Positions 12,026 through 62,166 of a stretch of DNA of 64,000 nt are shown piece after piece. The notes under the pieces were generated by a model. The model did no database searches. It had not been told where the DNA came from and was given only the letters and a program-made list of their open reading frames with translations. Every line of letters starts with the position of its first letter. Position 1 is the first letter of the stretch. Both the position numbers and the translations under genes were made by a program. Source of the DNA: an uncultured bacterium (GTDB lineage Bacteria; Patescibacteriota; Minisyncoccia; Moranbacterales; UBA2206); NCBI GenBank assembly GCA_903831805.1, contig CAIKZD010000017.1, positions 12,358-76,357 on the forward strand, in the 5' to 3' direction.

Positions 12026-13492
12026 TTATGCAAGTCTTCCTTCTAAATTCCAAGTATTGACGCGTGTTATCCTAACTTCAAGAAGCTTGCCAGCCAACTT
12101 TTTTTGGCTGGTTTTAATTTTTACATTTTTAAGGGTGCGTGTGTGTCCGAAATATTTACCAGCCCTACCATTGTCTACTAATACGTCAAAAGTTTTGCCG
12201 AGATATTGCTGATTGTTTTTGAGCGCCGACGCGGCTAGAATTTCATTTAAATATTTCTCGCGGCGAACTTTTTCTTCTTTTTTGATGTTATCCTTCAATT
12301 TGAACGCAGCTGTGCCTGGGCGCGGGGAGAATTGGCCAAAATATGACATATCATATTGCACTCGACGCATCACGCCGGCGGTTTTTTCCAGCTGGACTTT
12401 AGTTTCGCCGGGGAAACCGACAATGATGTCGGACGACAATGCAAAAATCTTCTCTGGTTTATTTTTAGCAAAACTATTTTTAATTTTTTCAATCAGCTGT
12501 AAATAATGCGCGCGGGTATAGTGGCGGTTCATATTTTTCAAAATTGTGTCGTCGCCCGACTGGATAGGCAAGTGTACTGCTTCGCAAACTTTTTCCAAGC
12601 TAGTGATGGTTTCAATCAGTTCAGCTGTCATATCTTTTGGGTGCGGCGTCATAAAACGGATCCAAAAATCTCCCGGAATGGCATTGATGGTTTTGAGGAG
12701 GTCAGAAAAATTCACAACATCACCCTCTCTGTCTCGAGTACGAGACATCTCTCCCGAGTACAGGAGAGATGGAAACATTTTGCCCCCTCTCCCGTACTCG
12801 GGAGAGGGCTGGGGAGAGGGCAATGGTTCGTAGCTGTTGACGTTCTGTCCAAGGAGCGTTATTTCTTTAACGCCTGATTTGATGAGCTTTTTAATTTCTT
12901 GCAAGATTTCTTCGGCCGGGCGTGAAACTTCTCGTCCGCGGGCGTAAGGCACGACGCAGTATGAGCAGAAGTTGTTGCAGCCGGTCATGATGGGGACATA
13001 AGCTTGGGCAGAGTTTGCGTATTTTGGAGTGACGGTTAAATAGCAATTGTCATTCTGAGCGGAGCATAGCGGAGTCGAAGAATCTGCTTTGTGGTGTAAC
13101 TGGCGATGATTATTAGTAGATTCTTCGACTTCGTCCGAGTACGGACTTCGCTCAGAATGACATAATAAAAAATTTTCAAGTTCTTGCATGAAGTCTTTGA
13201 TTTCACAAAACAAAGCCACCTTATTTTTCAATTTTTCCTGTATATCTTTCCGATTGGCCAGGCAGCCGGTCAGCACTATTTTTGTTTGCGGATTATTTTT
13301 CCAAAGATTATGGATCTGTCCGTACGCTCGGTCTTCAGCCATTTTTCTGACACCGCAAGTGTTGAAAATTACGATATTCGCTTTCGTAATGTCTTTGGCT
13401 GGCTGGATTTTTTGCGCTTCCAAAAACCCGGCCATCCGCTCTGAATCGCTGACATTCATCTGGCAGCCGAAGGTTTTGATGAAATATTGCAT
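12026..13492 (-). CDS. miaB: MiaB-family radical-SAM methylthiotransferase (tRNA-i6A37 methylthiotransferase-like), carrying two in-frame repeat insertions
   Basis: MQYFIKTFGCQMNVSDSE (MTTase N domain), CNNFCSYCVVPYARG radical-SAM motif and a C-terminal TRAM domain. Adjacent to miaA. Confidence 0.75.
   Translation of the reverse strand: MQYFIKTFGCQMNVSDSERMAGFLEAQKIQPAKDITKANIVIFNTCGVRKMAEDRAYGQIHNLWKNNPQTKIVLTGCLANRKDIQEKLKNKVALFCEIKDFMQELENFLLCHSERSPYSDEVEESTNNHRQLHHKADSSTPLCSAQNDNCYLTVTPKYANSAQAYVPIMTGCNNFCSYCVVPYARGREVSRPAEEILQEIKKLIKSGVKEITLLGQNVNSYEPLPSPQPSPEYGRGGKMFPSLLYSGEMSRTRDREGDVVNFSDLLKTINAIPGDFWIRFMTPHPKDMTAELIETITSLEKVCEAVHLPIQSGDDTILKNMNRHYTRAHYLQLIEKIKNSFAKNKPEKIFALSSDIIVGFPGETKVQLEKTAGVMRRVQYDMSYFGQFSPRPGTAAFKLKDNIKKEEKVRREKYLNEILAASALKNNQQYLGKTFDVLVDNGRAGKYFGHTRTLKNVKIKTSQKKLAGKLLEVRITRVNTWNLEGRLA
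12722..12830. repeat. compound AGTA/TACT-loop hairpin module in frame in the MiaB-family CDS
   Basis: GTCTCGAGTACGAGAC, TCTCTCCCGAGTACAGGAGAGA and CCCTCTCCCGTACTCGGGAGAGGG. Encodes ...EPLPSPQPSPEYGRGGKMFPSLLYSGEMSRTRDREG.... Confidence 0.7.
13048..13162. repeat. MITE-like element family 1 (TIR TGTCATTCTGAGCGGAGC...GCTCAGAATGACA), copy inside the MiaB-family CDS with the reading frame preserved
   Basis: Terminal inverted repeats match the intergenic copies. The ORF is continuous through it (...LLCHSERSPYSDEVEESTNNHRQLHHKADSSTPLCSAQNDNCY...) in the linker between the MTTase and radical-SAM domains. Confidence 0.7.
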
Positions 13493-25196: not shown

Positions 25197-25353
25197 TGTC
25201 ATTCTGAGCGAAGCCTGTAATCAGGCGCAGTCGAAGAATCTGCTCGGTGTAACTACTAGTTTACCTATAAAGCACAAGTCTCGAGGTAACCACTGGCAGA
25301 TCCTTCGACTGCGTTCATCGCCTCATCGGCGACTCACTCCGCTCAGGATGACA
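25197..25353. repeat. MITE-like element family 1 copy (intergenic)
   Basis: TGTCATTCTGAGCGAAGC...GTCGAAGAATCTGC ... GCAGATCCTTCGACTGCG...GCTCAGGATGACA. Confidence 0.75.
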
Positions 25354-33442: not shown

Positions 33443-34609
33443 ATGAAAATAGGCATAGACGCACGCACCATTTTAAATCCCGAGAAAGGAGAGGCTATCG
33501 GAGTCGGACATTACACATACCAGTTGATCCGCCACTTGCTGGCTATCGATAAAGAGAACGAATACGTTTTGTTTTTCGATTTTCGCGTGCGAGAAAAAGA
33601 CGTCAAGAAATTTGCACAGTCGAACGTGAAAATTAAATTCTATCCTTTTTCCGATTACAAAAAATATATGCCAGGGGCCTATAATGAAATTTTAGGGATG
33701 GCCACCTTGCTCCGTGAAAATTTGGATATTGTCCATTCGACGTCCCCGATGAGCCGCATCCCCGTGAGCTATCGCGGGAAAACCGTGGTGACAGTGCATG
33801 ATCTGGCCGTCTACAAGGTACCGGACGTTTTTCCGCAGCTGAAACGGACGAAAATCAGGACGACCACTAATTTGATGGTCAGTCACGCGGACATGATTAT
33901 CGCCGCTTCACAGTCGACCAAGAATGATATAGTGGATATTTTTGAAGCCAAGGAAGAGAAGATTAAAGTCATTTACAGCGGATTTGATAAACGGATGAGT
34001 GAAGAATCGAAAATGTCCCGGGGCGTGGTGTTGGAGAAATATGATATCGGCAAAGATAAAAAATATATCCTGTTCCTTGGAACGATCGAGCCGATCAAAA
34101 ACATCACGCGCTTGTTTGAGGCTTTCAAAAAATTTAAGGAAGACAGTATTAAAGAAAGTGGGAAATGCAATCATAAATTGGTAATGTCCGGCAAAAATGG
34201 TTGGTTGGCGCAGGAATATCGCCAGATTGCCAAGGATTTAGGCTTGGCCAAAGATGTAATTTTCACCGGTTATGTTATTGGTGATGAGTTGGTGCCGCTG
34301 TTCAAGAACGCCGATTTTTTTGTGATGCCGTCGCTCTACGAAGGATTTGGTATGACCGTGCTGGAAGCTTTTGCCACCGGCACGCCAGCCATCTTGAGCA
34401 ACGTTTCTTCCATTCCGGAGGTGGCGGGGGACGCCGCGCTTTTGGTCAATCCTTTGAAGACTGAGGAGATTGCGGAAGCCATGAAACTTTTTGCCCAAGA
34501 CGAAAACTTGAAAAACGCTTATCGTGCCAAAGGACTCGCGCAAGTGGAAAAATTCAATTGGGAAAAGTGTGCGCGCGAAACACTGGAAGTGTATAAGAGT
34601 CTGAAGTAG
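33443..34609 (+). CDS. glycosyltransferase family 4 (GT1 fold)
   Basis: [36 protein letters not shown]. Confidence 0.75.
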
Positions 34610-34617
34610 AAATTTTT

Positions 34618-34923
34618 ATGTTTGAATCAATTTCCAATGCCGAAGCGAAACAATTGATTGCGGAAAAAAAAGACAACGCAAAATTTTCCATCCTGGATGT
34701 GCGGACGCCGGAAGAATTTCAAGGTGGCGCCATAGCCGGCGCGAAAAATATCAATATCTATGAACCGGATTTTCGAGCCAAGTTAAACGCGCTGGACAAG
34801 GAAGGATCTTATCTGGTATATTGCAGGAGTGGCGCGCGTTCCAAGGCGGCAGCGAAAATTATGCAGCAACTCGATTTTTCTGAAGTGTACGAAATTGACA
34901 ATGGTTTTACGAATTTTCAATGA
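34618..34923 (+). CDS. rhodanese-domain sulfurtransferase (single domain)
   Basis: Catalytic loop YCRSGARS. Confidence 0.75.
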   Translation: MFESISNAEAKQLIAEKKDNAKFSILDVRTPEEFQGGAIAGAKNINIYEPDFRAKLNALDKEGSYLVYCRSGARSKAAAKIMQQLDFSEVYEIDNGFTNFQ

Positions 34924-34959
34924 TATAAAAGCGTTTGAGGGACTATCCATCCCGATGCT

Positions 34960-35205
34960 TTCGGAAAGAAATCCTTTTTTAAGGAGAGTAGACTCTGACG
35001 GGTTCCGCTTCAGCGGCGGATGAAGGCCCGTAATAGCCGTTTCAGAGGGTTGATTAGTTGAATAGTTTATTAGTTGATTAGGAAAGAAGCCTAATTAACC
35101 AATAAACTAAGTGACTAATTAACTAAATTAAGGTGGTACCGCGATTAAAGTCGCCCTTAAACGTAAGTTTTTGGGTGTTTTTTTATTTTTAATATACACA
35201 ATTAA
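34960..35205 (+). promoter_or_regulatory. T-box riboswitch leader of ileS
   Basis: Canonical T-box sequence AAATTAAGGTGGTACCGCG at 35126..35143, followed by hairpin CCCTTAAAC...GTTTTTGGGTGTTTTTTTATTTTT (terminator). Upstream are a stem-I-like nested hairpin and a long imperfect inverted repeat. Confidence 0.6.
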
Positions 35206-35219
35206 ACATTTAATTTATC

Positions 35220-35367
35220 CGTCATCCTGAGCGGAGTGAGCCCGCTTCAGCGGGGGAACGAAGTCGAAGGATCTACTTACATTACCTCAGGCTTATTGAT
35301 TTATAAAAAAGCCAGTGGTAACGCAAAATAGATTCTTCGACTTCGCTACGCTCCGCTCAGAATGACG
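35220..35367. repeat. MITE-like element family 1 copy, inserted between the ileS T-box terminator and the ileS start codon
   Basis: CGTCATCCTGAGCGGAGTGAGC...GTCGAAGGATCTAC ... TAGATTCTTCGACTTCGCTACGCTCCGCTCAGAATGACG. Confidence 0.75.
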
Positions 35368-35376
35368 ACTTATACT

Positions 35377-38300
35377 ATGAGTTTTAGAAAAGTAGAATCG
35401 AATCAAAAATTTCCGGAGATGGAAATGGAAGTGCTTAAATTTTGGGGGGAGAATAAAATTTTTGAGAAATCTTTAGAGAATCGCAAGGACGCTAAAGAAT
35501 ATAGTTTTTATGATGGACCGCCGTTTGCCACGGGCACGCCGCACTATGGACATATCGTGGCTAGTGTCATGAAGGATGTAGTTCCGAGATATTGGACCAT
35601 GAAGGGATATTACGTCGAGCGTAAATGGGGGTGGGATTGTCATGGGCTACCGATTGAGAATATCGTGGAAAAAGAATTAGGCTCAAAGAAAAAGAAAGAT
35701 ATTGTAGAAATGGGAGTGGAAAAATTTAATGAGCTTTGCCGCAGCAAGGTTCTGACCTATGTGGATGTGTGGGAGAAAGTTGTCAGTCGCATGGGGCGTT
35801 GGGCGGATATGAAAACCTCTTATCGGACGATGGACAAAGACTATATGGAAAGTGTATGGTGGGTTTTTAAAGAGCTTTGGGATAATGGACTAATCTATGA
35901 AGACTATCGCTCGATGCATGTTTGCCCAAGGTGTGAAACTACTTTGTCGCAATCAGAAGTTTCTGAAGGATATAAAGATATAAAAGATTTGTCAGTCATT
36001 GCAAAGTTTGAGCTGATTGATGAGCCGGGGACTTTTGTTTTAGCGTGGACGACGACACCCTGGACATTGCCGGGCAATGTGGCTTTGGCAGTGGGAGAAG
36101 AATTAGAATATGTGAAAGTGAAAGATTTATGGATTCCTCTGGATAAAGATAATATAAAGCCATTAGAAGAAGGAAAAACTCCGCCGGCAGTAGAAATGAA
36201 AGAGGAATATTATATTATTGAGAAGAATTCTTTTGAAAAATATAAAAAGATGTTTCATAACGCTGAGCCAAACGTTATAGAAGAATTTAAAGGTAAAAAT
36301 TTGATTGGCAAAAAATACGTTCCGCTTTTTGATTTTTATAGTAAAGACGAAAAATTAGCTAATCATAACAATGGTTGGAAAATTTATGCCGGTGATTTTG
36401 TGACGACCGAAGAAGGCACAGGCGTGGTGCACATAGCCCCGGCCTTTGGAGAAGATGATATGCGACTAGGGAAAGAAAATAATTTGCCCTTTGTGCAACA
36501 CGTGGCAATGGACGGCAGTTTCAAAGAAGAGTTGGGAGAACTGGCCGGACTGAACGTAAAACCGATTGAAAATCCACAAGCGACGGATGTGGAGATTATA
36601 AAATATCTAGCCAAGCATGGCACGCTCTTCCATAAAGAAAAATTTGAACATAGCTATCCGCATTGTTGGCGCTGTGACACGCCACTCATCAACTATGCGA
36701 CGAGTTCATGGTTTGTAGCTGTCACTAAAATCAAAGACAAAATGTTGGAGGTGGCCAAAAATATTAATTGGTCGCCGGCTAACATGAAAGAAGGCCGGTT
36801 CGGCAATTGGCTAGAAGGCGCGCGCGATTGGTCCATTTCCCGCCAGAGATTTTGGGCTTCTGTCATGCCGATCTGGGTGTGCGAAGAATGCGGCGAACAG
36901 AAAGTTTTTGGTAGTGTGGCGGAATTGGAAAAATTGAGCGGCGAGAAAATTGATGATTTGCACAAACACATCGTCGACAAAGTTACATTTCCTTGCGAAA
37001 AGTGTCAGAAGAAAATGAAGCGCGTGCCGGATGTACTCGACACTTGGTTTGACAGTGGCTCAATGCCATACGCTCAAAAACATTATCCGTTTGAAAATAA
37101 AGAACGCTTCGACAAAACTTTTCCCGCCAATTTCATTGCGGAAGGTGTGGATCAAACCCGGGCCTGGTTCTATTATTTGCATGTTATTGCCAGTGGCGTG
37201 AAAGAGCAAGAGGCTTTTCAGAATGTTATTGTGAATGGGATTGTTCTCGCTGAAGATGGCAAGAAGATGAGTAAGAAGCTACAAAATTATCCGGATCCAA
37301 TGGAAATGTTTGAAAAATATGGGGCGGACAGCGTGCGGCACTATCTGATGAGCTCGCCGGTGGTGGCTGCGCAAAATATGAATTTCATGGAAAGTGAGGT
37401 GGGTGAAATCACGCGAGGAATGATGCGCATGCTCTGGAATTCCTATTCATTCTTCGTGCTTTACGCGGACATCGACAAATTCGAAGCGGACAAAAACTTT
37501 GATCCAAAAAAACTGAATGGTCTTTTGGACCGCTGGATGGTTTCAGAACTACATATGCTGATTAAAGATTTCAATGGGCACATGGAAAACTATGAATTGC
37601 ATAAAGCGGCGCGCCTCTTGCCGAAGTTTATCGATAATCTTTCCAACTGGTACATTCGCCGTTCGCGTAAACGCTTTTGGAAAAGTGAAAACGATGGCGA
37701 CAAGAATGAAGCTTATCAGACTTTGTATTATGTTTTGGTAGAACTTTCCAAAGTTATGGCACCGTTCACGCCATTTATCGCGGAAGAAATTTGGAGAAAT
37801 TTGACGAGTGGCGTTTCAGAACCCCTCCGCCCCTTCGGGACACATCCCCTGAGTACAGGGGAGGGGGAAGTTGCGTCTGTGCATCTGCAAGATTTTCCGG
37901 CGGCAGATGAAAAATTGATTGATGAGAAAGTGAATAAAAATATGCAAGATCTTCGTGAAATTATAACTCTTGGCTTACAAGATCGGGCTAAAAACGGAAT
38001 TAAGGTTCGTCAGCCATTGAAAAGGGTTATTCTTGGACAAAAATACGCCGATGTTTTTAATGAAACTATTAATAAGATTGAATGGAGCAGTATTCTCATA
38101 GAAGAACTTAATGTTAAAGGCGCGGAGCTTGGAACGAAAACTGAAACAGTTATGATTGATACAGAAATCACTCCCGAACTGAAGCTTGAAGGGGCTGCGC
38201 GGGAAATCATTCGTCATATTCAACAGATGAGAAAAGATGCCGGCTACGAAGTGGATAACCGAATTGAGGTGTGGTATGATGGCTTAAAAGAGGTTTTTGA

Positions 38301-38439
38301 TAGTTTTGGAAGCTTAATCGCCAAAGAAACTTTGGCGAATAATGTTCTTTTGAAAAGCGAATCAGCGCTAGTGGCTGATTTAGAGAAAGTTTTTGAGCTG
38401 GACGGGGAGAAGGTTAGTGTTGCTATCAAAAAGAAATAA
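35377..38439 (+). CDS. ileS: isoleucyl-tRNA synthetase (long, eukaryote/archaeal-like type)
   Basis: HYGH and KMSKK class I motifs, CP1 editing domain and a C-terminal zinc region. Start moved downstream of the MITE-derived ATG. Confidence 0.9.
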   Translation: MSFRKVESNQKFPEMEMEVLKFWGENKIFEKSLENRKDAKEYSFYDGPPFATGTPHYGHIVASVMKDVVPRYWTMKGYYVERKWGWDCHGLPIENIVEKELGSKKKKDIVEMGVEKFNELCRSKVLTYVDVWEKVVSRMGRWADMKTSYRTMDKDYMESVWWVFKELWDNGLIYEDYRSMHVCPRCETTLSQSEVSEGYKDIKDLSVIAKFELIDEPGTFVLAWTTTPWTLPGNVALAVGEELEYVKVKDLWIPLDKDNIKPLEEGKTPPAVEMKEEYYIIEKNSFEKYKKMFHNAEPNVIEEFKGKNLIGKKYVPLFDFYSKDEKLANHNNGWKIYAGDFVTTEEGTGVVHIAPAFGEDDMRLGKENNLPFVQHVAMDGSFKEELGELAGLNVKPIENPQATDVEIIKYLAKHGTLFHKEKFEHSYPHCWRCDTPLINYATSSWFVAVTKIKDKMLEVAKNINWSPANMKEGRFGNWLEGARDWSISRQRFWASVMPIWVCEECGEQKVFGSVAELEKLSGEKIDDLHKHIVDKVTFPCEKCQKKMKRVPDVLDTWFDSGSMPYAQKHYPFENKERFDKTFPANFIAEGVDQTRAWFYYLHVIASGVKEQEAFQNVIVNGIVLAEDGKKMSKKLQNYPDPMEMFEKYGADSVRHYLMSSPVVAAQNMNFMESEVGEITRGMMRMLWNSYSFFVLYADIDKFEADKNFDPKKLNGLLDRWMVSELHMLIKDFNGHMENYELHKAARLLPKFIDNLSNWYIRRSRKRFWKSENDGDKNEAYQTLYYVLVELSKVMAPFTPFIAEEIWRNLTSGVSEPLRPFGTHPLSTGEGEVASVHLQDFPAADEKLIDEKVNKNMQDLREIITLGLQDRAKNGIKVRQPLKRVILGQKYADVFNETINKIEWSSILIEELNVKGAELGTKTETVMIDTEITPELKLEGAAREIIRHIQQMRKDAGYEVDNRIEVWYDGLKEVFDSFGSLIAKETLANNVLLKSESALVADLEKVFELDGEKVSVAIKKK
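37821..37868. repeat. AGTA-loop hairpin module inserted in frame in ileS
   Basis: CCCCTCCGCCCCTTCGGGACACATCCCCTGAGTACAGGGGAGGGGGAA, encoding SEPLRPFGTHPLSTGEGEV. Confidence 0.7.
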
Positions 38440-46828: not shown

Positions 46829-46883
46829 AAGTTTGTTTATTTTATTCCAGTATAAAGGAAGGCGGGGAAAAGGCAATCTTTTT

Positions 46884-47032
46884 GTCATCCTGAGCGGAGT
46901 GAGTCGCCGATAAGGCGAGGAACGCAGTCGAAGAATCTGCTTTGTGATAATTCTTGTTTTGTGATTTATAGTAAAATTAGCAGCTACACCAGGCAGATTC
47001 TTCGACTTCGCTACGCTCCGCTCAGAATGACA
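46884..47032. repeat. MITE-like element family 1 copy (intergenic)
   Basis: TGTCATCCTGAGCGGAGTGAGTCGCC...GTCGAAGAATCTGC ... GCAGATTCTTCGACTTCGCTACGCTCCGCTCAGAATGACA. Confidence 0.8.
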
Positions 47033-47079
47033 AATCACTACATCGTTTAAGTATAGAGCCAATCTTGTTTGACTTTTTC

Positions 47080-47265
47080 AGCTTTTAGGGATAGGATAAA
47101 GATACTTCTGGGGTTTGGCTCCCGGAGGAAAATTTAAAAAGAGTCTCGACATTTAGTCGGGGAAATCAGGTGGAACCGCGGACTTGATGTAAGTGATTAA
47201 TTACTTACATCGAAGCTCGTCCTGAACATGCGATTTTTTTGTATGTTCTGGACGGGCTTTTTGTT
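47080..47265 (+). promoter_or_regulatory. T-box riboswitch leader of glyQS
   Basis: AAATCAGGTGGAACCGCGG (47163..47181) matches the T-box consensus AANNNGGGTGGNACCGCGG. A downstream hairpin TTGATGTAAGT...ACTTACATCGAAG and a U-run follow; an upstream hairpin loop contains GGC (Gly). Confidence 0.6.
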
Positions 47266-47338
47266 TCTCTCTACGAATTACGAATTGGTACGAATATACG
47301 AATTAGAAAAGATAATTTTTTAAAAATACCAAAACAAT

Positions 47339-48745
47339 ATGAGTGAAAAAAACAATAATGAACAATCCATGATGGAGAAAATGACATCGCTGTGCAAAAG
47401 GCGGGGGTTTGTTTTTCCGAGCAGTGAAATTTATGGCGGGATGCAGGCCATTTATGATTACGGTCATTATGGCACACTGCTCAAAAATAATATTCGTGAT
47501 GCGTGGCTCCGCCACATGGTGCAGTTACGCTCGGATGTCGTAGGATTGGATAGCGCCATTTTCATGCATCCGAAAACTTGGGTGGCCTCGGGACACGTGG
47601 GCGGGTTCAACGATCCGCAGGCGGATTGCAAAAAATGTAAGTCACGTTTCCGGGCCGATCATATTTTGGAAGAATTTGGTATCAACGCTGATAAAGCACC
47701 TTTGGAAGAACTAAATGCACACTTGGACAAATTGCGCGCGGAGAAAAAATTGAAATGTCCCAATTGCGGTTCGACCGATCTGACGGAAGCCAAGATTTTC
47801 TCTCTCATGGTCAAATCCAATATCGGTTCGCCAACGGACGAACTGAAAGAAGAAAATGTGGTCTATCTGCGGCCGGAAACTTGTGGCGGCATTTATTTGG
47901 AATACAAAAATACCGTCGATTCACTGCATGTGAAATTGCCATTCGGCATCGCGCAAGTCGGCAAAGCTTTCCGGAATGAAATCGTGGCGCGCCAATTCAT
48001 TTTCCGCACGCGCGAATTTGAGCAGATGGAAATGCAATATTTCTTGCATCCGAGCATGATGAAAGATAAATATGAAGATTGGAAGAAAACGCGCTGGCAA
48101 TGGTACTTAGAATACGGCATTGCCGAAAATGAAATTCGCTGGTATAAGCACGAAAAATTGGCGCATTATGCTTCGGAGGCGTTTGACGTGGAATATAATT
48201 TCAAAACTCTCGGCGGCTTCAAAGAGGTGGAAGGCGTGCATGCGCGCGGTGATTGGGATCTGTCTCAGCATGCCAAGTTTTCCGGCGTGGACCTGAGCTA
48301 TTTCGACGAAAAATCTGGCGAAAGATTCATCCCACACATCATGGAAACTTCCGTGGGTCTGAATCGTTTGGTGCTGATGTTCCTCGACCAAGCCTACCAA
48401 GAAGAAACAGTGGGCGAGGACACGCGAGTGGTTTTGAAATTAGACAAACGTCTGGCGCCGATCAAAGTAGCGATTTTGCCACTTTCCAAAAAAGAAGAAT
48501 TATCCAAGCCAGCCAGAGAAATTTATGAAAAATTACGTGAGAATTTTATGGCCGAATATGACGAAACACAATCGATTGGCAAGCGCTACCGCCGCCAAGA
48601 TGAAATCGGCACACCGTTCTGCGTGACAGTCGATTTTGAAACGCTGAATGATCAATCGGTGACCGTGCGAGAACGTGATAGCATGAAACAAGAACGGGTT
48701 AAGATAGGGAAGTTAGAAAGTTATTTGAGAGAGAATTTATCATAA
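47339..48745 (+). CDS. glyQS: glycyl-tRNA synthetase (alpha2 dimeric type)
   Basis: RRGFVFPSSEIYGGMQAIYDYGHYG, the hallmark of alpha2 GlyRS; class II motifs. Confidence 0.85.
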   Translation: MSEKNNNEQSMMEKMTSLCKRRGFVFPSSEIYGGMQAIYDYGHYGTLLKNNIRDAWLRHMVQLRSDVVGLDSAIFMHPKTWVASGHVGGFNDPQADCKKCKSRFRADHILEEFGINADKAPLEELNAHLDKLRAEKKLKCPNCGSTDLTEAKIFSLMVKSNIGSPTDELKEENVVYLRPETCGGIYLEYKNTVDSLHVKLPFGIAQVGKAFRNEIVARQFIFRTREFEQMEMQYFLHPSMMKDKYEDWKKTRWQWYLEYGIAENEIRWYKHEKLAHYASEAFDVEYNFKTLGGFKEVEGVHARGDWDLSQHAKFSGVDLSYFDEKSGERFIPHIMETSVGLNRLVLMFLDQAYQEETVGEDTRVVLKLDKRLAPIKVAILPLSKKEELSKPAREIYEKLRENFMAEYDETQSIGKRYRRQDEIGTPFCVTVDFETLNDQSVTVRERDSMKQERVKIGKLESYLRENLS

Positions 48746-55010: not shown

Positions 55011-55148
55011 TGTCATTCTGAGCGAAGCGTAGCGAAGTCGAAGAATCTGCTTTGTGTTTCCAGTGGTTATCCTATAAGGGTAAAACTTGTGGTAATGCAA
55101 AGTAGATCCTTCGGCTGCGTCCGAGTACGGACTTCGCTCATGATGACA
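55011..55148. repeat. MITE-like element family 1 copy (intergenic)
   Basis: TGTCATTCTGAGCGAAGCGTAGCGAAGTCGAAGAATCTGC ... GATCCTTCGGCTGCGTCCGAGTACGGACTTCGCTCATGATGACA. The right arm contains the GTCCG-AGTA-CGGAC hairpin. Confidence 0.75.
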
Positions 55149-61920: not shown

Positions 61921-62023
61921 CCCCGAAAAATGGCTTTGCCATCTCGGGGTGAAAGTTGAATTTTAACTGGTGAATATTAGCTTAGATAAAGCAATATTTA
62001 GTAGTTAGGGTTTAAAGAGAATT

Positions 62024-62166
62024 GTCATTCTGAGCGAAGCGAAGTCGAAGAATCTACTTTGTGTTTCCATTGGTTATGCTATAGATTGCAAAGCTAGTGG
62101 TAACGCAGGGCAGATCCTTCGACTGCGTTCCTCCGCTAGCGCGTCGTTACTTCGCTCAGGATGACA
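62024..62166. repeat. MITE-like element family 1 copy (between the minus-strand gene and atpD)
   Basis: TGTCATTCTGAGCGAAGCGAAGTCGAAGAATCTAC ... GCAGATCCTTCGACTGCG...CTTCGCTCAGGATGACA. Confidence 0.75.

Follow-up and report, generated by a model that had tools for sequence, protein, structure and literature searches.

Introduction

The closest described relatives of the element considered here are the ultrashort-Stem-I T-box riboswitches (class II, or 'US') of Actinobacteria, which lie upstream of the isoleucyl-tRNA synthetase gene, ileS. Published descriptions give them a short Stem I with a kink-turn (K-turn) and with the specifier codon in the apical loop, a Stem II that contains an S-turn, and a Stem IIA/B pseudoknot of 21 nt (PMC7583486; bioRxiv 10.1101/2023.02.28.530422). 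In the 2023 preprint (10.1101/2023.02.28.530422) every member of the ultrashort class is said to regulate ileS, and the class as a whole to act on translation. Reviews treat the long, elbow-binding Stem I as a kinetic necessity of transcriptional T-boxes, required for fast capture of tRNA, with the ultrashort form affordable only under translational control (PMC7583486). Here we consider the ileS leader in a 64-kb window, that is the whole stretch of DNA analysed (64,000 nt of contig CAIKZD010000017.1, assembly GCA_903831805.1, from an uncultured bacterium), in which a preliminary description had flagged a T-box. On the basis of its sequence and of comparison with related leaders, the region 34930-35190 is very probably a genuine tRNA-sensing T-box riboswitch, apparently new in joining an ultrashort Stem I to a transcription terminator.

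The TBDB class II model was searched only in Actinobacteria and among truncated class I matches (PMC7778990), and regulation in Patescibacteria was called virtually unknown in a 2024 perspective (PMC11665869). The literature that we searched, a limited collection, describes no native T-box in Patescibacteria, the Candidate Phyla Radiation (CPR), Parcubacteria or Saccharibacteria. Some actinobacterial leaders of the ultrashort type may previously have been recorded with terminators.

Architecture of the ileS leader

The flagged leader sits between a rhodanese-domain gene (34618-34923) and the gene for isoleucine--tRNA ligase (1020 aa). For comparison, 97 ileS loci (loci carry L numbers in what follows) were gathered from reference genomes, metagenomes and contigs encoding the nearest homologues; a metagenome scan with a single protein query gave seven loci. 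The order of modules is fixed across the leaders: Stem I, Stem II, Stem IIA/B, linker, Stem III, discriminator and terminator.

Stem I (34930-34959, + strand) is a K-turn hairpin of 30 nt in total with an equivalent in all relatives. The C-stem pairs AGCG (34930-33) with UGCU (34956-59). Next come a UUU bulge (34934-36) and tandem GA (34937-38) opposite GA (34954-55), then a helix of 4 bp, GGGA (34939-42) with UCCC (34950-53), and finally the apical loop CUAUCCA (34943-49), in which the Ile codon AUC at 34945-47 is the specifier. The pattern AGCG-UUU-GA...GA-UGCU fits a K-turn at the sequence level. Across the relatives the Stem I helix is 92% paired with compensatory changes at 5/5 pairs, and none of 500 shuffles attains the observed covariation score. 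The C-stem and non-canonical (NC) helix pair in 16 parsed leaders of differing sequence (AUUCU/AGAAU, ACUCU/AGAGU, GGC/GCC, AGCG/UGCU). The specifier itself is invariant, in the 13 leaders that were aligned and in eight read directly, within loops of the pattern NNAUCR or NNAUCAA (CUAUCA, AAAUCA, AUAUCA, UCAUCA, CAAUCA, UUAUCG, CUAUCAA, CCAUCAA, CGAUCA).

Stem II (34961-34998, +) is defined by covariation and by R1, a covariance model discussed below. The lower helix, UCGGA/UCUGA, comprises 5 bp that are 100% paired among relatives, all five with compensatory changes. It supports the S-turn internal loop, with strands AAGAAA and GAGUAGAC in the window and the consensus AAGAAA / RRUAGAM in the leaders, and an upper hairpin UCCUU-UUUU-AAGGA. 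The strands AAGAAA / AAUAGAA are common to the actinobacterial-type ileS leaders L062, L068 and L036.

The Stem IIA/B pseudoknot follows (34999-35038, +). Stem IIA, formed by CGGG (34999-35002) and CCCG (35027-30), is invariant, and Stem IIB, which joins loop GG (35025-26) to CC (35037-38), covaries; in relatives the loop-to-tail pairs are AU (six), GC (two), GU (one) and UA (one). In the leaders this module takes the form CGGG-UAAG-CCCG-UAAUA-GCUG. Specific to the window is a 20-nt hairpin insertion in pseudoknot loop 1 (35004-35023, CCGC-UUCA-GCGG), and the R1 model assigns 23 nt to the pseudoknot loop of the window against 3 in the consensus.

The preliminary description read this part of the leader differently, taking a nested hairpin at 34994-35047 (CUCUGA-CGGG...CCCG-UAAUAGCCGUU-UCAGAG) as Stem I and AUA in its 3′ internal loop as the specifier. 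The strings exist, the helix is the one drawn by a single-sequence minimum-free-energy fold, and AUA does encode Ile. Among the relatives, though, the CUCUGA/UCAGAG outer helix is paired in only 64.6% of cells, whereas the competing Stem II helix is fully paired, with its five compensatory pairs. The AUA within GUAAUAGC is not kept, with AACAGC and AAACGC found in relatives (AUA to ACA or AAC). The segment matches the IIA/B pseudoknot, including the covarying pseudoknot pair, and the separate hairpin with the invariant AUC is present upstream, 5′ of the flagged region. We regard a Stem I with an AUA specifier at 34994-35047 as scarcely credible. The span originally assigned, 34960-35205, does contain the T-box but starts too late, since the feature begins at about 34930, 30 nt farther upstream.

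A purine-containing linker, UUUCAGAGG (35040-35048, +), corresponds to UUGAGG, AAUGAAG or UUAAGAG in relatives and leads into Stem III (35049-35123, +), a long AU-rich hairpin of 75 nt with a folding energy of -30.2 kcal/mol. This is the long imperfect inverted repeat noted at the outset; its loop, AAAGAAG, was correctly placed, but the arms are 34 nt at 79% complementarity rather than about 20 bp. Stem III ranges from about 15 to about 95 nt among relatives.

The T-box sequence AAUUAAGGUGGUACCGCG occupies 35126-35143; the 19-mer first reported begins one base earlier. It belongs to an antiterminator (35126-35158, +; -6.2 kcal/mol), recognized by alignment to Rfam, in which helix A1, AAGG (35130-33) with CCUU (35155-58), and helix A2, GCGAU...GUCGC (35141-54), flank the 7-nt bulge UGGUACC (35134-40). 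Over 13 leaders A1 and A2 are 94% paired, with the closing pair of A2 being AU in eight, GC in three and GU in two.

The intrinsic terminator (35152-35190, +), assigned by folding, comprises the hairpin CGCCCUUAAAC-GUAA-GUUUUUGGGUG (35152-77) and the tract U7AU5 (35178-90), and bears out the terminator-like hairpin with U7 originally proposed. It is calculated at -11.6 kcal/mol, as against -6.2 kcal/mol for the antiterminator, and its 5′ arm contains the 3′ strand of A1, CCUU, so the two structures are mutually exclusive. In 13/13 leaders folded a hairpin with a U-tract overlaps CCUU, and a run of at least five U comes directly after it. A simple terminator scanner found no match in 34600-35500 because the stem has a 2x2 UU/UU internal loop; the terminator was identified instead by explicit folding.

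Relatives and distribution

The R1 model was constructed from Stem II and Stem IIA/B of ten relatives, with the window left out, and was run with filters off. In the 64-kb window a single site is significant, 34961-35048 (46.9 bits, E about 8e-8), and the next best reaches 12.5 bits. Across the loci R1 also recovers leaders outside its training set (L002, L008, L016, L066, L082, L084, L085 and L095), and the AUC loop, the UGGU bulge and a terminator are present in each of these eight. A relaxed motif search adds L014, L051 and L073. About 20 Patescibacteria loci have the design ahead of ileS, each with a terminator except L073, and the leaders found by R1 or by relaxed motif include records named Saccharibacteria/Saccharimonadia, Peribacteria and unclassified Patescibacteria metagenome-assembled genomes (MAGs). 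The element is absent from most other Patescibacteria ileS loci examined, for example those of Falkowbacteria, Kaiserbacteria, Uhrbacteria, Gracilibacteria and Minisyncoccus. One locus, L088, was assembled independently from the same population as the window. Over 7 kb the two assemblies differ by one base, which falls within ileS, and they share an identical leader.

In almost all close relatives the T-box core lies 80-90 nt 5′ of ileS. In a sub-clade (L081, L082, L084, L095-L097) it is found 800-1100 nt upstream, ahead of an open reading frame (ORF) of the TrpR family, and there the T-box would control a two-gene unit of the TrpR-like gene and ileS. The intervening ORF encodes 175-181 aa and matches PF01371 with 64.5 bits (e.g. 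L096, 1354-1899).

Two further observations concern individual records. L073 (1340-1600) has a Stem I with an AUC loop and an S-turn, but its discriminator is not followed by a U-tract and AAGGAG precedes its AUG by 8 nt. This member of the family may act on translation. Ten MAGs (L007, L008, L010, L016, L018, L019, L030, L031, L075 and L080) encode IleS proteins 47-57% identical to that of the window, and some carry the ultrashort T-box. The labels Gammaproteobacteria, Bdellovibrionales, Promethearchaeota and archaeon on these records look doubtful.

Proposed mechanism and alternatives

We propose that 34930-35190 acts as a tRNA-Ile-responsive T-box that would control ileS by transcription attenuation. 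The GAU anticodon would meet AUC in the apical loop of the K-turn hairpin, and the Stem II S-turn with the Stem IIA/B pseudoknot would clamp the codon-anticodon duplex in the manner seen in the Nocardia farcinica and Mycobacterium tuberculosis structures (PMC7583486); the leader has no elbow-binding platform. The tRNA, if uncharged, would then pair through its ACCA-3′ end with the UGGU of the 7-nt bulge and stabilize the weaker antiterminator. Without uncharged tRNA-Ile the stronger terminator and its U7 run would form, and transcription would end before ileS.

Because U-tracts are universal in the tested leaders and Shine-Dalgarno (SD) sites near absent in the genome, we infer that the output is transcriptional. 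Might the leader instead sequester a ribosome-binding site, in the manner of the ultrashort ileS T-boxes of Actinobacteria? Every ultrashort T-box described so far is translational (bioRxiv 10.1101/2023.02.28.530422; PMC7583486), and L073 shows that one family member lacks the U-tract and has an SD-like AAGGAG ahead of its start codon. Against this, the helix that competes with the antiterminator is directly followed by at least five U in the window and in 12 other folded leaders, and in the window about 190 nt, with a repeat element among them, separate the switch from the AUG. SD sequestration is also disfavoured because an SD-like 4-mer occurs in the 22 nt before the start of only 4/33 long ORFs of the window, ileS not being among them. 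Translational control is accordingly very unlikely here.

A scan of the window against Rfam at gathering thresholds gave no match. With permissive filters RF00230 aligns full-length to 34966-35161 with 42.7 bits, the gathering score being 93, and with E = 4.5e-6 when the entire 64-kb window is compared with all 4227 families. In this alignment the discriminator half is near-perfect and the Stem I half is deleted or mis-assigned; the low score arises because the latter is forced onto the wrong sequence. The preliminary description would have abandoned the T-box assignment on a score below threshold, which is what is observed, but the test is a poor one: the scanned relatives also all fall below it (39-61 bits in six; three, L093, L016 and L066, undetected at E <= 0.01), and the threshold therefore excludes the whole class. 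The Infernal alignment also suggested a specifier AUU within GAUUAG (35051-56), which we reject because this stretch is unconserved and belongs to Stem III, a variable element, as part of its 5′ arm.

Several points nevertheless weigh against a functional ultrashort T-box of this kind. Where the window has C34948 after the specifier, each of the other 20 leaders has a purine (G in L097, otherwise A); the C is present in both assemblies, and A34949, which comes after it, might substitute for the purine. The pseudoknot-loop insertion is shared by no relative. Nor does any relative have the very stable hairpin of the repeat element 9 nt before the AUG, L088 being of the same population as the window. 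R1 gives the window its 46.9 bits against 63-78 bits for the close relatives used to build the model, and the Rfam score is far under the gathering score. Given the published view on fast tRNA capture (PMC7583486), an ultrashort Stem I may not sense tRNA efficiently during transcription. Finally, there is no tRNA gene in the 64-kb window to match to the specifier or discriminator. Counting in favour is the one tRNA-Ile found beside such a leader, which lies directly after ileS in L034 (Peribacteria), a locus with the same leader type. Its anticodon, GAU, is complementary to AUC, and its end, AUCGCCC-A-CCA, is complementary to UGGU (A73).

C34948 and the pseudoknot-loop insertion leave room for a weakened switch. 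Such a decaying or hypomorphic T-box would have lost tRNA sensing, wholly or in part, in this population, with ileS expression now dependent on leaky read-through or on the repeat element. Three window-specific lesions could be cited (C34948, the insertion in the IIA loop and the repeat lying within the 5′ untranslated region, UTR), as could the reduced R1 score and the need for the pseudoknot in tight tRNA binding in the actinobacterial class (PMC7583486). We nonetheless consider decay unlikely. Every helix is intact, as are AUC, the UGGUACC bulge and the terminator. L091, with an IleS identity of just 76%, has a discriminator and a terminator almost the same as those of the window, and the leader does not differ between the two independent assemblies. 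The 20-nt insertion folds as its own hairpin in the loop, and a plain hairpin can largely replace the pseudoknot (PMC7583486). A consensus scan of the + strand reveals no sigma-70-like promoter in the repeat, and a dead default-OFF switch would be costly because ileS is essential.

Gene start, promoter and host lineage

The gene downstream of the T-box, ileS (35377-38439, +), is identified by a match to TIGR00392 (927 bits) and by its Pfam domains. In the mechanical ORF the first in-frame ATG is at 35362, inside the right terminal inverted repeat (TIR) of the repeat element, and the public gene call P0001 (1006 aa) starts at 35419. We place the true start at 35377 because the N-terminus is conserved in relatives, 23 of which give the consensus xxFKKVESNQKFPEMEKEIIKFW.

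A consensus scan identifies a promoter-like site, TTGACA-18 nt-AATGAT (34895-34924, +), with 10/12 matches. The rhodanese gene ends inside this putative promoter (stop codon 34921-23), from which RNA would be initiated at about 34930, at the base of Stem I; -35/-10-like boxes are also seen just 5′ of Stem I in relatives. More generally, the upstream regions of the window ORFs are A/U-rich, GC skew is positive in all 4-kb bins of the window and the majority of genes are on the + strand.

The preliminary description placed the T-box leader upstream of ileS and made its interest conditional on the lineage assignment. The closest IleS proteins, with 63-78% identity, are named Candidatus Moranbacteria/Moraniibacteriota, Parcubacteria or Patescibacteria, and a Moranbacteria-like CPR host for the ileS T-box is therefore supported.

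Leaders of glyS and thrS

Two other aminoacyl-tRNA synthetase (aaRS) genes in the window have leaders of related appearance. glyS (47339-48745, +) encodes a glycyl-tRNA synthetase (GlyRS NF003211, 618 bits) and is preceded by a sub-threshold T-box leader (47069-47266, +), for which a permissive scan with RF00230 gives 28.4 bits over 47129-47224. From a promoter-like TTGACT-N17-TAGGAT (47069-97) the leader proceeds to an 8-bp hairpin, CUUCUGGG-GUUUGGCU-CCCGGAGG (47105-28), whose loop contains GGC, a Gly codon (47117-19), then to Stem III (47145-61), the bulge UGGAACC and a long terminator (47215-57) with a U-run. There is no long Stem I, and the base after the codon is U, not a purine. The hairpin is kept in two relatives with compensatory stem changes, L098 (GGC) and L101 (GGA).

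The Paceibacterota glyS locus L104 has, at about 1090-1115, a hairpin UGUGG-CUUUGGCU-CCACA with a UUUGGCU loop as in the Moranbacteria glyS leaders; no T-box core or terminator follows the hairpin at this locus.

On the opposite strand, thrS (15299-13548, -) has a T-box-like leader at 15512-15319 (-), to which RF00230 assigns 29.7 bits full-length and a local E of 4.8e-5. Its promoter, TTGACT-N17-TATAAT (15512-15485), is followed by a K-turn hairpin, GAAGC-CUU-GA-...-GA-GCUUC (15467-15434), whose loop CUACCAA includes the Thr codon ACC (15450-48). The leader continues with Stem III (15401-15386) and the bulge UGGAACC (15377-71), and closes with a long terminator that ends in U6 (15329-19).

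The R1 scan of the window finds no R1-type Stem II module in either leader. The comparisons draw on three sequences for glyS and one for thrS, a thinner base than for ileS; if the evidence holds, the ultrashort design is not limited to ileS in this lineage.

A palindromic repeat in the ileS 5′ untranslated region

The repeat between the terminator and ileS (35220-35367) resembles a miniature inverted-repeat transposable element (MITE). It is 148 bp long and was recognized by comparison of repeats and TIRs; the latter, CGTCATCCTGAGCGGAG / CTCCGCTCAGAATGACG, are 17 nt with a 94% match. It lies 29 nt past the U-tract and 9 nt short of the start codon, and both the switch and the ORF are intact, as was originally proposed. 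It was probably inserted later than the T-box, downstream of the terminator, and read-through RNAs would carry a 148-nt hairpin just before the AUG. The RNA of this copy folds at -77 kcal/mol.

The window has six two-armed copies, compared with 0.07 TIR matches expected by chance. All are intergenic, of 115-157 bp (13048-13162, 25197-25353, 35220-35367, 46883-47032, 55011-55148 and 62023-62166). The ends read (T/C)GTCAT...ATGAC(A/G), with a terminal pair C...G in the ileS copy and T...A in the others, a covariation that suggests selection for the hairpin itself. The internal sub-hairpins of the copies differ in sequence but keep their pairing. The family is absent from 103 other loci and from the relatives' leaders, the sole exception being L088, and is specific to this population.

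Short, non-coding, multi-copy intergenic elements with TIRs of at least 17 nt, present or absent between close relatives, are typical of MITEs, of repetitive extragenic palindromes and bacterial interspersed mosaic elements (REP/BIME-like) and of palindromic elements associated with IS200/IS605. The present family differs in having a covarying terminal base pair and no visible target-site duplication, there being no shared direct repeat flanking any of the six aligned copies. A cognate transposase was not identified, although no search aimed at transposases was made.

Two of the six copies adjoin T-box leaders (ileS and glyS) and one is just downstream of thrS. An exact 12-mer, CCGCTTCAGCGG, occurs only twice in the 64 kb, in the IIA-loop insertion (35005-35016) and in the MITE (35242-35253), where it lies 237 nt downstream of the first occurrence in a copy-specific sub-hairpin.

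Implications

The 5′ UTR downstream of the terminator evidently tolerates a 148-nt hairpin, and the MITE is itself of minor interest. The interest lies more in the class, an ultrashort T-box with a terminator, widespread in Patescibacteria. That Patescibacteria carry a lineage-wide, unannotated family of miniature T-boxes combining an ultrashort Stem I with a terminator, represented here by ileS, thrS (CUACCAA) and glyS (GUUUGGCU), is a proposition on which we are evenly divided. If true, it would contradict two generalizations, one holding that a long Stem I is indispensable to transcriptional T-boxes and the other that the ultrashort kind acts on translation and is confined to ileS. Such a family would offer a natural test of the kinetic argument. 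Do slow polymerases or pausing compensate, or do Stem II and Stem IIA/B suffice?

tRNA-sensing switches on three aaRS genes in 64 kb would show that reduced, largely SD-independent genomes keep RNA-level sensing of amino-acid starvation. Patescibacteria T-boxes would also supply ready-made regulatory parts for new genetic systems. Pipelines based on thresholds overlook the class, whose members would be recovered with a dedicated covariance model.

Comparison with known T-box systems

The closest systems are the class II ileS T-boxes of M. tuberculosis and N. farcinica (6UFG and 6UFM in PMC7583486). The target gene is the same, AUC is likewise placed in the apical loop of a very short K-turn Stem I, and both lack a distal platform for elbow binding. 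Also held in common are the S-turn strands AAGAAA / RRUAGAM, the compact IIA/B pseudoknot and the standard UGGU bulge of the discriminator. This match to the published short-Stem-I architecture supports the assignment of the window leader as an ultrashort T-box. The differences lie first in the expression platform, here an intrinsic terminator with a U-tract and not an SD sequestrator, and in the lineage, Patescibacteria (Moranbacteria-like, Saccharimonadia and Peribacteria) rather than Actinobacteria. In addition, many Patescibacteria members carry an extra hairpin between Stem I and the base helix, giving a three-way junction, and Stem III is often greatly expanded. The copy in the window further departs from class II in the C after its specifier and in its 20-nt pseudoknot-loop insertion.

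With the class I transcriptional T-boxes of Firmicutes (RF00230; for example Bacillus subtilis tyrS and glyQS) the ileS leader shares the T-box sequence, the 7-nt UGGN bulge, helices A1 and A2, the mutually exclusive terminator and antiterminator, a basal K-turn in Stem I, the order Stem II, Stem IIA/B and Stem III, and a downstream aaRS gene. It differs in having no long Stem I, and with it no specifier side-bulge, AG bulge or distal loop (interdigitated T-loop motif, IDTM); the specifier is carried instead in the terminal loop.

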